The translations under genes and the position numbers were made by a program. 64,000 nt of DNA from Protoeuglena noctilucae (taxonomy: Eukaryota): positions 1,426,001-1,490,000 of the forward strand of contig OY253668.1 in assembly GCA_958009085.1 (NCBI GenBank). Direction: 5' to 3'. The notes beneath the pieces were generated by a model that saw only the letters and a list, made by a program, of their open reading frames with translations, was not told the origin of the DNA and made no database searches. Positions 16,001 to 63,100 of this stretch are shown one piece after another; position 1 is the stretch's first letter; the number at the start of each line of letters is the position of its first letter.

Positions 16001-19000
16001 GCTGCCGTGCGAGCGCCTGGTAGGCCGCCAATTCTCTTTCCTCCGGAGAGTCGGGTCGAGCGCGGAACTGAGCACGGAGCACGTCTGCGAGGTGGCAGTG
16101 GGGATGGTAGATGGGGTGCTTGTGGGGTATCTGGAATGCGGTGCAGGCGGGGGTGTGGTGTGTGGGGTAGCTGGTATGGGGCAGGCGAAGTGCGGGGTGG
16201 GCATGGGTGACCGAACACCGCCCCAATGGTGTATGCACTGCGCATGACCTATGTCACTCCCCGCCCACCCAACTCCGTCGTCACCTGCCCCCGGGCTTGG
16301 CTTGTACTTAAGCATTTCCACCACTTCCTCCAGGAAGTGCTCCCGCACCGGGTGCGTGAAGCCCGGGATCGTGAGGCAAGGCGCGGAGGCACCGAAGTAA
16401 GCGGCGAAGCTGTCGGCGTTGATGGTGGCGGACATGAGGACCACGCGCAGGTCGGGGCGGCGCGGTAGCAAATCGCGGAGGAGGATGAGCAAGAAGTCGG
16501 AGTCGAGGGACCGCTCGTGGACTTCATCGACTGCGACGGGCAAGTGGCGGGGGGCGTGGTTGTGCGTGAGAGGCGCGTGCTTGTGTGCGTGAGAGGCGGG
16601 TGCGAGTGTATGAGGTGTGCGAGCACAAAGGGTGCATAAATGACGGTGCAAGTGTCAGGGACGGCGTCTCACCGATGACGTGGGTGACGCCGGCCAGGGC
16701 GGGGTTGTCGACAAGTCTCCTTAGCAGGACGCCCGTGGTGCAGAAGAGGAGCCGCGTCGACTCGGAGCTGCGCGACTCGAGGCGGATGTGGTAGCCGACC
16801 GTGGACCCCAGGGACTCGCATCGCTCGTCCGCCACCCGCTGCGCCACGCTGGTGGCCGAGATGCGCCGGGGCTGCGTGCACACGATGCTGGCGAGGCCCC
16901 CGCGGCCGGCGTCGATGAAGGATTCCAGGATGAACTGGGGGACCTGAGAGGAGGGGCGGGCGCGTGCGCAAGTGATGGCGGTGGCGCAGGCGAGTGGGGT
17001 GACCAGCTGAGACCGAACCAACTACAGCGCCAGCACTGCCCCACCCTTAGCACCCCCCAATGCCAGCCCTGGTGTTGCGATACCCCACCTCTCATGTCCC
17101 ACGCCCCCTCATGTCCCGCACCCCATGCCACGCCCTCGCCTGCGTGGTCTTCCCGCACCCCGTCTCCCCCGCCACGATGACCACCTGGTGCGACTCAATC
17201 GCCCGCACCACCTCGTTCCGGAAACCCCACGCGGGGAGGCGCTGCCTGCAGATGCACGGCAAGTCAGAGACCCGCGGTGCCCGTTGTAGGTGTTCTAGCA
17301 CACTCTGGGCACATGCAATCATAGCACTTTACACCAGCACCTTGACTAACCACGCCATTCAAAAAGTAAAAAGTTGGAACCTCACTGCTAACCACTTCTC
17401 GACTCCCATGCTACTTTGCCCCTCACCTCTGCTCCCGCATCTGACGCTCCTTGCCCCCTGGCGCCTCCCGCCAGCGCCGCAGGCTCTGCTGAAGCCGCAC
17501 CGACGCGTCCTTGGACTTGTGCCGCACCCAGTCGCGCCAGCGGGATTCGTGGTCGCGCCCGGACGCCTCTGCAGCAAGCGAGGACCTGTCCACGTCAGCC
17601 AGCCCATCCACGCAACCCAACAAAAGCTCCAAGCACAGCAGCAGTCTCACATCACCAGTGGCGATGTAAGCACCACAACCATCAGTACCTAACGATCGTC
17701 AAGCCCTGCGCCCCCTGTGCAACGCCAACCATGCCACCCTGCATGCCCTCACCTGCCCGGTCAGCACTGCCCCTTTCATACAAGCTCCGCAACTGCTCCT
17801 CCTCCCGATCCATTTTCTCCAACTGCGCCTCCTCATCCTCCTCCCCACCCACCCGCCCCTTCGCAGGGGCCCCTCCACGCCCGCCCACCTGGACCACCGC
17901 CACTTGCGCCCCCCGCCCCCGCCCCCCGCCCGACGGACCCGCCCCCTCTCCCAGGCCCCCGGCCTTGGCGCCTCCGCCACCCCGCGCCGGCACAGCCACC
18001 GTGGCCACGCCGCTGCTCCCCGGGCGCCAATCACCGCTGGCAGCGTCGGCAGAAGGGCCGCCCCGAATCGCCGCCACCACCCCGACGCCTGACCCCGGCG
18101 CCGCTCCCCGCTTCCCTTTCTCCACCGTCACCGCGGCCACCTCAGGCCCAGCGCCTCTGCCATGCTCAACAACCGCTGCAGAATGCACAGCACCAGCAGC
18201 CTGCTTCCCGCCCCCAACCGCCACCACAGCAACCCCAGCCCCCCCAAGCTCCCCACCTGCACCGCTCGCCGCAGTGCTTGCGTCTCCCCCCCTCGGCTTT
18301 CTCCCAGACGTGCCCCTGGCGACGGGCACGGCAGCAGCCCCGCGACACTCGCTAGGCGCCGCCCGCGGGTCCAGGGCCACAACTGCCACCGGCCCCAAAC
18401 CCTTCTGACCCTCTCTCAAAGCTCCCTTCCCCGACTGCGGCCTTGCGCCCGCCCCAGCCCCCACAGCAACTGCCACCACTGGGCTCTTCGATCCCTCCTT
18501 CTTGCTCGCCCCATTCGACCCCACCGCCACAGGTACGACCGTCGCACGCGCTTTCCCATCCCCCTCGTCGCCCTCCTCCTCACCCTCACCCTCGTCCTCC
18601 TCCCACTCCTCATCCTCATCGCCTTCCTCCTCGTCCCAGTCCTCATCATCTTCGCCCTCCTCGTCGTCCCACGACCCTTCCTCATCCTCCCCGCCCTCGT
18701 CACCCTGACACACCTCGGCCAGGCGCCCCCAAGCACGCGCGGCGCTCTCCTGCAGGCTGTCCGGCAGCCGCGCCACCACCTCTGCCACGAAGGGCATCCC
18801 CGGCCGACAGAGGTTGGCAAAGTCCGCCTCCAGGGCCGCATGGGCAGCCGCCAGCGCCCACAGAGGCAGCGCGGGCTCTACAACCCAGGCGCCGCCCCGG
18901 AGGACCCGGAAGGAGGCCGACGTGGGCGGCTCGAAGGGGTAAAGGGACCCCGGCGCGAACCACACCGTCAGGTTGACGCGTACGGTGCGGGCGCCGGGGC

Positions 19001-60100: not shown

Positions 60101-63100
60101 CTCTCCCTCTCATCCGCAGACAAGCTCGAGAAGCTCAAGATCGTCCGCGCGGTGCTGGAGCAGGGCGGCCACTTCAGCGGGGTCAACCGCAAGTGCCAGA
60201 TCAAGCCCACCGCGTGGGAGGACGCGGCCCCGGGGGAGGACCCGAGGTGCCGGGAGGCGCTGCTCATCGTCAAGCACGGCGGGGTGCTGACCCACGCGGG
60301 GCGCGTGCAGACGGAGCGGCTGGGGCAGAACTACCGCATGACGATGTACCCCCGGTACGGGCCCTCGGGCGGGGGGCTCCTGCGGCTCCACTCCACGTAC
60401 CGCCACGACCTGAAGATCTACTCGTCGGGTGAGGGGACGGGGTGGGGCAGCTGGGGTGTGGCAGCTGGGGTGGAACACGTGGGGCGTGCGAGAGGGGCAG
60501 GGGCCTAATCTGTGACATCGCGAGTGGGGCGGGGGCCGCTGATTGTGTCCGTTGCTTGGAGTCGAACGCGAGTGGCGTAGGGGCCGGGGTGGCTGTTTGC
60601 ATCCTTAAGCCAGGCTTAGGGTCGATCGTGAGTGCCGTCGCTACCTCGCGCGTTTCACGCTCGCTCTGCCTTGGCGATCGCAGATGAGGGCCGCGTGCAG
60701 TGCAGCGCTGCGGCGTTCACCAAGGGCCTTTTGGACCTGGAGGGGGCGTCGCTGACTCCGATCCTGGTGTCGCTGGTCAAGAAGGACGCGCGCATGCTCG
60801 ACGTGTTTGAGGCGAGTGGGAGGGGCAGAAGGGTAGATGGGTGTAAGGGTGATAGGCGACTGAGGCACGTACCTGCATGAGGTGTTCGAGGCGAGTGGCA
60901 GGAGTAGAGGGGTGATGTGACTGGGGCACGGACCGGGTCAACGTGTGCGGTGAGGGCCCATGGTAAGGTGGACTGGGTAGCACTAAGGGGGTAGCATTGG
61001 CGCACAGCGTGGCTGAGGGAGGCGCCAGCATTCATCGCCATGTACGCACCGCCCCTGTGCGTGCAGAAGGGGGCGTCGATGGACATCCGCGCTGCCAAGA
61101 CGGTGCTCTACCGCCGCATCACGACCGACCCCCTGTCCTCAATCGCTTACAACATCCCGCTCCCCTCCTTCAACACCCCCAACCGCACGCCGCCCGCCAC
61201 CTCCCCGCCCCTCTCCCCGACGCCCTCCACCACCAACATCGGAGGCGCGCTGGGCAGGTGACGATGTGAAGAGACTTGCACGTTGGGATATCCAACATCG
61301 CTCTGTCCACGCTCTGCTGTCACGCACCTGCGTCCCCATTTACACCTGCGCTCCTGCAACCCCACGCACTTTGCACATATCACACCCCAACATCCACCCC
61401 ATAACGACACCCCAGTCACCCACCCCCTCAGGTCCCGCCCCGACACCCCCCACATCGAGCCACCCCAAGAGTCGGAGACCCACCAGGAGTCCTCGGCCAC
61501 CACCCCCGCCGCCGGGTCCCGGGCCAAGGGACCGTCCGTTTCCATGACGGAGGCCAGCAGCCCCGTGGCCCTCACCTCCCGCGCCATGAGCCGCGTCCAG
61601 GACAGCCTGGCGCTGTTAGGCGACGGAGCGACGCACGGGTCCGTCCCCAGCTTCAGCCGCCGCGTGAGCCGCCACGGCAGCGAGAGGGACGAGGACGCGG
61701 ACCTGGGCACGGAGATACGCGCGCTGCCGGACAACTCGCTGGGGTGAGGGAGGGGCGTAGGAGGGGGAGGGGTGGATGCGGGTGATAGTTGCATGCAGGT
61801 GTGGTTACTGGGTGTGGGGCCGTGGCAGCGTGCTGTCATTATAGCACGACACTGCATCGCACCTTTGGCTGGGTTGTGCTGTGTGAGGTGGCGTTCAGGT
61901 CCTGAGCCCCCACCGGCCCTGCCCTATGCAGGCTGCTGCACGATTTGCTGGAGAAGACCAAGCTGTTGGTGGAGGTGAGGGACGAGGAGTTGTCTCACCT
62001 GTGACTATATATCAGGTTGCCTCGTAACACATGCAAGATTGCGAGCGCCCTCCCCCTGCCCTCCCCAGGAGCTTCACGACAAGTGCAAGAGCAGCAGTTT
62101 CACGCCCGCCGAGGGCATCAAGTCCTACAGCGCCCTGACGCAAGACACCAAGGAGTGGGTGGAGCAGGAGGGGCAGCCCTGCAGCGGGGAGCGTCTGCTG
62201 CTCATCTACGATCGGTGGCGCAAGCTGCACAAGGCGCTCTACCTTCCCAAGAAGGGGCTCTTCGACATCTCCAAGATCCCAGACATCTACGACATGGCCA
62301 AGGTGACATGCTTGACGCTAGCATATGTGGCATGGCCAAGGTGACTTTGGGTGTGGGTGTGGGTGTGTGGGCGTGGGTGTGGGTGCGTGTAACTTCTGAC
62401 ACAGGTGAGCAAGTTTACAGCTGGCGAGTTAACTGCGGATGTGCTATCGTGTGCCACCCCCGCAGTACGACGCCGTGCACAACAGCCACATGGGCCTCAC
62501 CAGGCTCCACGACGTGTACGGTCTGTCCAAGGTCCTGGCCAACGCGGTGGTCCCCAACGAGTACGGCATCACCGACAAGCAGAAGCTGTCCATCGGATCC
62601 AAGGCGAGTGAGATGGCTCATATTAGAAGCAAGAGTTGTTGATCAGATCCAAGGCGAGTGAGATGCGTGGTAGCCAATACCAAAGCAAGAGATGTCGATT
62701 GGATTCAAGGGGAAGGGTAGCGTGAGTGAAGAAGGGAGCCCGCACATGAGTGGGGGCTGCCTGGGATCGCCAGTCATTGCCAGTCGAGTAACGGCAGACG
62801 TGATAAGAGCTCACGAGGCCAAGTGACAGCCCCCCTCGCGTGCCGCAGATCGCGGAGCAGCTGCTGGCCAAGGTCCTGACGGACCTGGACAACACCAAGA
62901 GCGAGAGCGTGAGCACGGCGGGGCAGGAGGGGTCGGCGGCGGGGATGACGGTGGAGGACTCCCGGGCGGCGCACCTGGCCCGGAGGTACGACGAGGAGGC
63001 CATAGAGCCGCCGGTACAGGTCAAGGGCGAGGTGCCGGAGGGGCTGTCGGACTCGGAGGTGGGTGCGGGGCGGGGTGGGGTGACATGGGTGGCGGGGGTC

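Follow-up and report, generated by a model that had tools for sequence, protein, structure and literature searches.

The window, the whole 64,000-nucleotide stretch of Protoeuglena noctilucae DNA analysed here, carries a series of genes in which the first-pass annotation had listed 18 introns beginning with GC. Its letters contain AG/GC (the slash marks the exon-intron border) at all 18 coordinates, the donors reading GCGAG in 13, GCAAG in two, GCGCG in two and GCAGG in one. As had been claimed, every listed donor follows an exonic AG, and most (15/18) read GCGAG or GCAAG. Four of the 18 were confirmed by RNA and seven by homologues, and the other seven depend mainly on frame and the gene model.

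The introns seen in RNA are all on the minus strand and belong to GET3 (42316..42473, CAG/GCGCGT), a TRZ-like gene (49194..49284, CAG/GCGAGC) and the His-tail gene (50424..50504, GAG/GCGAGA; 51148..51242, CAG/GCGAGA). RNA contigs from four runs (three samples, one study) were mapped to positions 42200-62199 of the window. Among the joints listed (15 of 46), 4 were GC-AG and 11 GT-AG; 4/15 compares with an expected 1.2% (p = 2.5e-5). Each of the four GC-AG joints was seen in three of the four runs (X1, X2 and X3), whereas X4 has one of the 15 listed joints. Use of nearby GT donors, which would have spoken against the first-pass annotation, was not observed: all four listed donors among the joints shown are exact GC-AG, and for each of them this is the sole register ending in AG. 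The donors at 52295, 54685, 56516 and 60812 are absent from the 15 of 46 joints listed.

Homologues support seven further donors. In the DEAH helicase gene (16944..17139, minus strand, CAG/GCGAGG, model margin 3.7) DHX36 residues 58-92 and then 93-185 continue without a gap across 17139, and in BIO3-BIO1 (24568..24735, minus, CAG/GCGAGT, margin 9.8) the same is true of 4A0F residues 652/653 across 24735. Pfam positions are contiguous across the donor in the rhodanese-domain gene previously called CEP41 (28473..28574, plus, CAG/GCGAGC, PF00581, margin 7.9) and across both donors of the WDR55 body (36978..37118, minus, AAG/GCAAGG, PF24796 254/255, margin 10.7; 37612..37723, minus, GAG/GCGAGT, PF24796 149/150, margin 9.2). 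A cluster-representative search with the WDR55 exon returned only many-repeat WD40 proteins. The two VIP1 introns (60812..61066, GAG/GCGAGT; 62604..62848, AAG/GCGAGT; both plus) leave no gap against homologues, and both were also picked by a neutral spliced aligner in which GT, GC, GA and GG donors had equal cost.

Six of the remaining donors are supported by frame, and at each of them an in-frame, stop-free GT alternative exists. They lie in BIO3-BIO1 (26762..26893, minus, CAG/GCGAGG, margin 7.6, in-frame GT at -21, -9 and +6), the FYR gene (31459..31570, minus, AAG/GCGCGT, margin 4.5; 31933..32060, minus, AAG/GCGAGG, margin 9.2, in-frame GT at -9 and +9), the WDR55 tail (36208..36340, minus, AAG/GCGAGG, margin 8.6), the aldo-keto reductase gene (54685..54776, plus, CAG/GCGAGG, margin 4.3, in-frame GT at +6) and the DR1-like gene. 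The last is a likely GC-AG intron (52295..52433, plus) with an atypical donor, AAG/GCAGGG, and an open frame, MAEDGLLPK/APIYKM; it is the one case not predicted by the gene model, which recovers 17 of the 18. The seventh, in the P-loop of the tRNA isopentenyltransferase (IPT; 56435..56516, minus, AAG/GCAAGG, margin 10.9), has partial support in that MiaA residue 24 starts the downstream exon and an RNA piece stops at the acceptor; no structure match was found for the upstream exon. Taking these lines of evidence together, the high frequency of GC donors noted in the window is real.

The gene model predicts additional GC-AG introns in the window. These are in an EF-hand-like gene (1940..2078, minus, CAG/GCGAGT, predicted by the model alone with a margin of 12.0), a hydrolase-like gene (8559..8637, minus, CAG/GCAAGG, margin 11.2; 8725..8813, minus, AAG/GCAACC, margin 5.9), the FYR gene (31246..31362, minus, GAG/GCGAGT, margin 3.4, retention leading to a stop) and at 40523..40662 (plus, AAG/GCGAGG, margin 5.2). 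A prediction upstream of the IPT domain (56671..56761, minus, GAG/GCAAGG, margin 4.6) is uncertain and lies in an unconserved N-terminal stretch. Model calls at 34009, 47845, 57259 and 57355 had margins below 1.5 and were set aside; that at 47845 is likely a false GC call from a gene fusion, the GT donor probably lying 43 nt further on. An Rfam scan of the window gave no match.

The share of GC-AG introns was estimated with a self-trained gene finder run on 864 kb from 21 contigs, about 3.3% of the genome. In this model 289 of 1765 introns (16.4%) were GC-AG. The window contributed 27 GC introns among 135 (23/119 at margin >3), in agreement with the earlier hand count of 130-140 introns and with the claim that more than 10% of them are GC-AG. 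Of the 1381 introns that lie beyond the window and have a margin >4, 221 were GC (16.0%, 95% CI 14.1-18.0%). The share depended little on the starting prior (16.5% with 1%, 17.5% with 50%), stayed at 15-17% for margin cut-offs up to 15 and was uniform over the 21 blocks (p = 0.72), whose GC content is 64-68%. Decoy dinucleotides given the same flanks and prior received 3-17 calls against 282-289 for GC, and when GA-AG and GG-AG introns were admitted as free classes they shrank to 3 and 15 of 1595, without consensus, and were rejected. GC and GT introns were alike in length, acceptor and position in the gene, and CAG was the acceptor in 1465 of 1492. The model thus predicts that about one intron in six starts with GC, which by rough extrapolation would amount to 8,800 GC-AG introns genome-wide. 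A GC donor is present in 151 of 264 complete model genes, so that GT-only annotation would damage more than half of the genes, as the first-pass annotation had warned of GT-only gene finders.

GC donors differ from GT donors in their surroundings. A is found at -2 in 96% of GC donors and 60% of GT donors, and G at -1 in 99% and 90%, respectively. Both the exonic AG and an intronic RAG are present in 190 of 229 GC donors, whereas GT donors mostly have one half of this signal (odds ratio 0.17, p = 6e-45). The freedom of +2 can be read from the proportion of C within a given context: in AG/GYAAG it was 28/33 (0.85 against a neutral 0.84), in AG/GYGAG 161/390 (neutral 0.65), and in GYGAG lacking the exonic AG 7/408. 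Expressed as a relative weight, C is neutral in AG/GYAAG, about 0.4 in AG/GYGAG, 0.13 in AG/GYACG and about 0.01-0.05 if either half is missing. The share of C climbs with the number of U1 pairs elsewhere in the donor: it is 0-4% in donors with up to four pairs and reaches 49-57% in those with 7-7.5. With +2 set to U, the mean U1 duplex energy is -10.5 kcal/mol for GC donors compared to -8.3 for GT donors. These observations, made on model calls in which GC donors in weak contexts may be under-called, show that C at +2 requires the exonic AG and the intronic RAG together. Compensation by the exonic AG, as originally proposed, is therefore half of the rule: AG is enriched at GC donors, but AG alone is insufficient.

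Genome searches identified U1, U5, U6, PRP8, U1C, LUC7, SNRNP27 and a METTL16-family gene. The 5' end of U1 (AUACUUACCUG), loop 1 of U5 and the ACAGAGA box of U6 are canonical, and the suggestion that altered snRNAs read the GC donors found no support in these pairing regions. The U12 donor motif ATCC occurred in none of the 289 GC introns and the CCTTRAY branch motif in two; no branch-point consensus stood out in the model introns, and a genome search for U6atac gave no match, as did its positive control. Judged by their sequences, the GC-AG introns are predicted to be ordinary U2-type introns of the major spliceosome.

We consider it probable that these are U2 introns in which +2 T has changed to C under genome-wide GC pressure, at sites where pairing of the exonic AG and intronic RAG compensates. 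Pairing of these two elements with U1 would offset the lost U-A pair, and the share of C would reflect mutation or GC-biased conversion balanced against selection for sufficient U1/U5/U6 pairing. In the strongest sites +2 would then be nearly free of selection, in AG/GYGAG C would be tolerated to some extent, and in other contexts it would be removed. Of the relaxed or altered recognition, possibly GC-driven, that was first suggested, GC pressure is thus the likely part and compensation is supported, whereas altered snRNAs are not. The share of GC donors tracks gene GC3 weakly, with quartile values running from 13.5% to 19.1% (p = 0.09); intron GC had no overall effect (p = 0.33). Of 15 VIP1 introns that a different pair of green algae have in common, seven start with GC in the loci L160/L162 (66-67% GC) and with GT in L164 (52% GC). 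In the VIP1 gene of the window, none of 12 well-aligned intron positions is common with seven loci of other green algae, so that GT-to-GC switches are untraceable there; intron positions were compared in VIP1 alone, the flanks of the related loci containing no orthologues of the sampled genes. That GC donors have stronger flanks, and that they are linked to high genomic GC, has been published (PMC3167603, PMC3033335). According to the accessible part of PMC3033335, Micromonas RCC299 has 64% GC and just 2.7% GC-AG introns, so GC content is not sufficient.

A more unusual alternative, which we regard as unlikely, is a re-tuned 5' splice-site reader (U1C Val19, diverged PRP8) combined with a strength window, in which +2 C would be preferred in the strongest donors and act as a dial on U1 affinity rather than being a defect that is put up with. 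If true, it would account for the high GC-AG share of some GC-rich algae and its absence in others.

Rather unlikely, too, is the proposal that changed spliceosome proteins (U1C, PRP8 or others) read +2 C better than those of GT-typical algae, GC pressure then filling the room. At 77 alignment columns where at least 95% of homologues agree, PRP8 has a different residue, but the changes are scattered over the whole protein, no single candidate stood out in this comparison, and Q1522, R1523 and F1551, which we take to have a role at the GU, are retained. SNRNP27, LUC7 and the METTL16-family gene are present, and GC donors are still limited to strong contexts, like in human. U1C has Val in place of human Ser19, a residue that bonds to U1 snRNA, although Ala at this position had no effect on growth in yeast (both from the available text of PMC4383343). 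Species differ in their GC-AG share in ways that GC content alone does not predict, and PMC3033335 suspects proteins of the U1 snRNP or modified bases.

It is less likely still that there is an optimum of donor strength, with very strong GT donors disfavoured and +2 C selected to weaken them. T at +6 is found in 15 of 252 AG/GTGAG donors (6% vs 16% locally, p = 1.8e-6), but +7 T is just about 9% in these donors, which argues that T is scarce near donors anyway, and +6 T makes a competing GT at +5. In MAG/GYGAGT, C was found in 36 of 42 (0.86, CI 0.715-0.946), a proportion higher than the neutral 0.66 of introns, but the synonymous level of 0.79 falls inside this interval, and the subgroups were picked after seeing the data.

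We doubt strongly that the GC-AG introns survive from an ancient burst of introners that brought or co-opted GC donors. Introners co-opting splice sites are described for other algae in the accessible text of 10.1101/2022.06.06.494994, and the VIP1 positions appear lineage-specific (0/12 shared with the seven loci), the nearest relative (L087) lacking all nine introns spanned, including that at 60812; this position evidence comes from one gene. On the other side, blastn matched only 14 of 1765 introns to another intron, three of them GC, although small or old families could escape a 3.3% sample. There was no signal of target-site duplication or terminal repeats (direct-repeat z all <2; the highest complementarity z among 323 tests was 2.8), donor +2 was independent of the next exon (26/61 vs 27/63), and the exon length histogram had no visible periodicity.

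That the high share is a frame-fitting artefact of a GC-rich genome in which nearby GT donors are used is largely refuted and hardly credible, for although an in-register GT lies within 30 nt of 64% of predicted GC donors and the model makes false GC calls such as, probably, that at 47845, the RNA-shown cases were exact in 4/4, decoys stayed near 1%, and the same model finds 0/21 GC in VIP1 of L164 (52% GC), if 2/4 in a poorly modelled adjoining gene.

The 1% baseline assumed at first is right for human and plants (PMC3167603, PMC6310983, as far as their available text goes), whereas 14-65% had already been published for other GC-rich algae. The excerpted text of PMC3033335 gives 22.2% for Micromonas pusilla, 39.6% for Aureococcus anophagefferens and 7.7% for Chlorella sp., and calls the origin of such algae an enigma; that of 10.1101/2024.10.30.620910 gives 14-17% for Aureococcus and about 14% for Pelagomonas; and 56-65% of donors are GC in Emiliania huxleyi (PMC4028052). 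Annotation ratios computed from the PMC6310983 supplement are 5.7% for Chlorella sorokiniana, 7.0% for Micractinium, 5.8% for M. pusilla, 8.5% for Ostreococcus tauri and 1.7% for Coccomyxa, raised but below the 16% found here; such figures vary with the annotation used, as M. pusilla shows (5.8% vs 22.2% in PMC3033335).

Our organism resembles the GC-AG-rich algae in its 66% GC genome, double-digit GC-AG share and canonical U1 5' end, and differs in its pedinophyte-like lineage and in that no young intron families were seen in the sample. With Emiliania it shares GC richness, AG acceptors and a GT default that misleads gene finders, but here GC donors are a minority confined to strong sites, and free GA and GG classes collapse. 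As in human and plants, the introns are U2-type with stronger flanks offsetting the +2 mismatch; unlike there, GC-AG is about 13 times commoner and the C share in AG/GYAAG equals the neutral level. GC-rich algae that are GC-AG-rich were thus already known, and what is added here is a further lineage and a quantified context rule: the available parts of PMC3033335 and 10.1101/2024.10.30.620910 contain no context-by-context measure of +2 freedom, and our literature search on GC-AG introns found no paper for pedinophytes or Auxenochlorella and, among the papers listed, none naming Elliptochloris. The graded rule makes the enigma of GC-AG-rich algae testable across genomes, and it provides a natural series bearing on a clinical problem, namely the conditions under which GT>GC donors can still be spliced. 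A one-protein tree (FastTree, one gene, 54 of 121 rows) groups the organism with Pedinophyceae.

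All 18 sites in the window that the first-pass annotation had proposed as GC donors read AG/GC. Contigs assembled from four metatranscriptome runs (three samples, one study) were compared with window positions 42200-62199, where no letter differences were listed. Among the best-supported 15 of 46 RNA joints, resolved for slide, 11 were GT-AG and 4 were GC-AG. The latter gave exact joints at donors 42473, 49284, 50504 and 51242, and no alternative register of these joints ended in AG; AG preceded all four, and the intron began with GCGAG in three and GCGCG in one. At 17139, 24735, 28473, 37118, 37723, 60812 and 62604 the homologues were gap-free across all seven junctions. 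The donor at 56516 was half supported. At six listed sites the GC reading is based on the frame, with the gene model agreeing in five, and in-frame GT alternatives exist at all six.

The window (66.4% GC) corresponds to G000:C1:1426001-1490000 of the source genome, G000 (26.3 Mb, 27 contigs). Beside it, one 40 kb stretch of every contig from C2 to C21 was analysed with a gene finder written for this work, in which donor classes were kept separate. Its seed consisted of three window genes confirmed by RNA plus two exons, and the GC class started from GT flanks and a 1% prior. At convergence GC donors made up 263 of 1598 training introns (16.5%), and 281 of 1605 (17.5%) with a 50% prior. The corresponding numbers were 289/1765 among all intron calls, 242/1492 at a model margin above 4, and 221/1381 at that margin outside the window (CI 14.1-18.0%). 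The share stayed level from block to block and when the margin cut-off was raised to as much as 15. When eight decoy dinucleotides received the flanks and prior of the GC class, 3-17 calls resulted, of low margin in the three decoys examined. After retraining on data that excluded the window, the model found 12 of the 15 RNA introns and 17 of the 18 listed sites, a recovery that is not fully independent because its seed was again taken from the window. Errors comprised three fused genes and at least one GC call, 47845, that is probably false. In another alga (locus L164) the model called 0/21 GC donors in VIP1 and 2/4 in a poorly modelled neighbour. The abundance of GC-AG introns is a real, genome-wide feature.

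Donor context was analysed in the 1388 introns that lay in complete genes, had a margin above 4 and contained no N, which left out 377 of the 1765. GC donors carried A at -2 (96%), G at -1 (99%), A at +4 (91%) and G at +5 (97%), and exonic and intronic AG occurred together in 190/229, whereas GT donors mostly had one of the two (odds ratio 0.17). When donors were pooled over C or T at +2, the C share rose from 0-4% to 49-57% as the other pairs with U1 increased. With the C/T levels of intergenic DNA and of intron interiors as reference, C had a relative weight of 1.0 in AG/GYAAG (C in 28/33), 0.38 in AG/GYGAG (161/390), 0.13 in AG/GYACG (7/15) and 0.01-0.045 in the remaining contexts; these rules derive from model calls, and weak GC donors may be missed. 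In this set GC and GT introns did not differ in length, acceptor or gene rank, and a difference in phase lost its significance when AG-preceded donors only were compared (p = 0.10).

Sampled introns from the 21 blocks ended in YGCAG nearly throughout (G at -4 in 81-86%, CAG in 98%), and 93% of GT introns had G at +3. No clear branch-point consensus was found in them, and no intron of the high-margin set was below 70 nt. Both VIP1 GC introns have their donor motif twice (within 60812-60900 and 62604-62660): AGGCGAGTG recurs some 80 and 50 nt downstream, which is a possible alternative donor.

GC pressure had been suggested as a possible driving force, and several results weigh against it. The GC share was weakly linked to gene GC3 (p = 0.09) and overall not to intron GC (p = 0.33), with p = 0.044 for strong donors alone. 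In MAG/GYGAGT, C reached 86%, above the intron level (0.66) and compatible with the synonymous level (0.79), and T at +6 was rare in strong GT donors. This excess of C and the scarcity of +6 T leave room for donor strength being kept at an optimum.

Altered snRNAs were not borne out for U6 and U5, whose ACAGAGA box and loop 1 match the consensus. U1, found as one copy slightly below the Rfam cut-off, starts with AUACUUACCUG. U12 motifs were absent from the GC introns, and U6atac gave no match in a search that lacked a working control. Genes for U1C, LUC7, SNRNP27, a METTL16-family protein and PRP8 were found. PRP8 (L085+L086, G000:C14:434255-444970) keeps Q1522, R1523 and F1551, residues lining the GU pocket; 77 near-invariant columns are changed, dispersed over the whole protein (for example F1577M, I1566L and S1588A, human numbering). 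Its gene has two predicted GC-AG introns, one at WEGLFWEK/ASGF, gap-free in 117 homologues, and the U1C gene has one. U1C (L168:1501-2662) reads THDS-LVVRK, with Leu18-Val19, Val standing at the position of human Ser19; human residue 18 is Pro. Ser19 bonds U1 snRNA, and Ala at this position leaves growth in yeast unaffected (PMC4383343).

An origin from young introners is disfavoured, as the sampled introns showed neither families nor duplications nor inverted ends. Of the 12 well-aligned intron positions in VIP1 of the window (57526-64000), none was shared with seven green algal loci (L087, L089, L112, L135, L160, L162, L164), and all nine spanned by the nearest relative, L087, were absent there. 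Within the compared span two donors are specific to L087. Judged from these alignments the VIP1 introns of the window seem specific to this lineage. For that reason no GT-to-GC switch could be traced in the P. noctilucae genome; a large intron gain in the lineage is suggested. Such a switch is visible elsewhere: at 7 of 15 positions, six of the seven gap-free, L164 (52% GC; named VIP1 nearest to it, Coccomyxa) has GT and L160/L162 (66-67% GC; nearest, Elliptochloris) have GC. Since GT is the general state, we infer that the change ran from GT to GC. This GC-rich trebouxiophyte (also L157, L159, L161) may be even richer in GC-AG introns and use a different motif, CAG/GCGCG, with predicted GC calls of 7/24 in VIP1 and 10/15 in the upstream neighbour.

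In a FastTree analysis of VIP1 (54 of 121 rows) the window and P0001 grouped with Pedinophyceae sp. YPF-701 (support 100), and we infer a pedinophyte-like green alga as the source, a qualified placement because the tree rests on one gene. GC-AG shares of 39.6% in Aureococcus, 22.2% in M. pusilla, 7.7% in Chlorella sp. and 2.7% in M. RCC299 have been described, with U1 canonical and the origin named an enigma (PMC3033335). Pelagophytes have 14-17%, attributed to GC content (10.1101/2024.10.30.620910), and Emiliania 56-65% GC donors (PMC4028052). Further related sources are 10.1101/2022.06.06.494994, on introners that co-opt splice sites in other algae, and PMC10639083. The plant mean is 1.2% (PMC6310983), and ratios computed here from its supplement are at most 8.5% for green algae. 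Human GC donors are compensated by stronger flanks (PMC3167603), and in mammals GT>GC changes number 298 vs 40 GC>GT (PMC2490688). The main text of the YPF-701 preprint (10.1101/2021.10.04.463119) has neither 'splice' nor 'GC-AG', and no literature joining 'GC-AG' with 'pedinophyte' was found; preprint supplements and subscription papers could report a share for pedinophytes. GC-AG-rich genomes are already known as a kind; the novelty lies in the lineage and in a quantified rule that states where +2 can vary freely.

A 2331 nt contig of RNA run X1 (48578-51795) covers two genes, His-tail and TRZ-like, and a GT-AG intron (49683-49773) separates the stop of the first gene read from the start of the next; in runs X2 and X3 the two lie on separate contigs of differing depths. 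For the X1 contig a bicistronic transcript is one possible reading, overlapping UTRs another. A long repeat of His, Asp, Gly and Cys (49999-50190) closes the His-tail gene. A tRNA-like sequence seemingly follows the U6 gene directly (L002:1603-1700), a region for which Rfam at gathering score lists U6 alone. Within an ABC-F-like gene, a predicted intron (22926-23457) carries a (TG)n microsatellite roughly 270 nt long.
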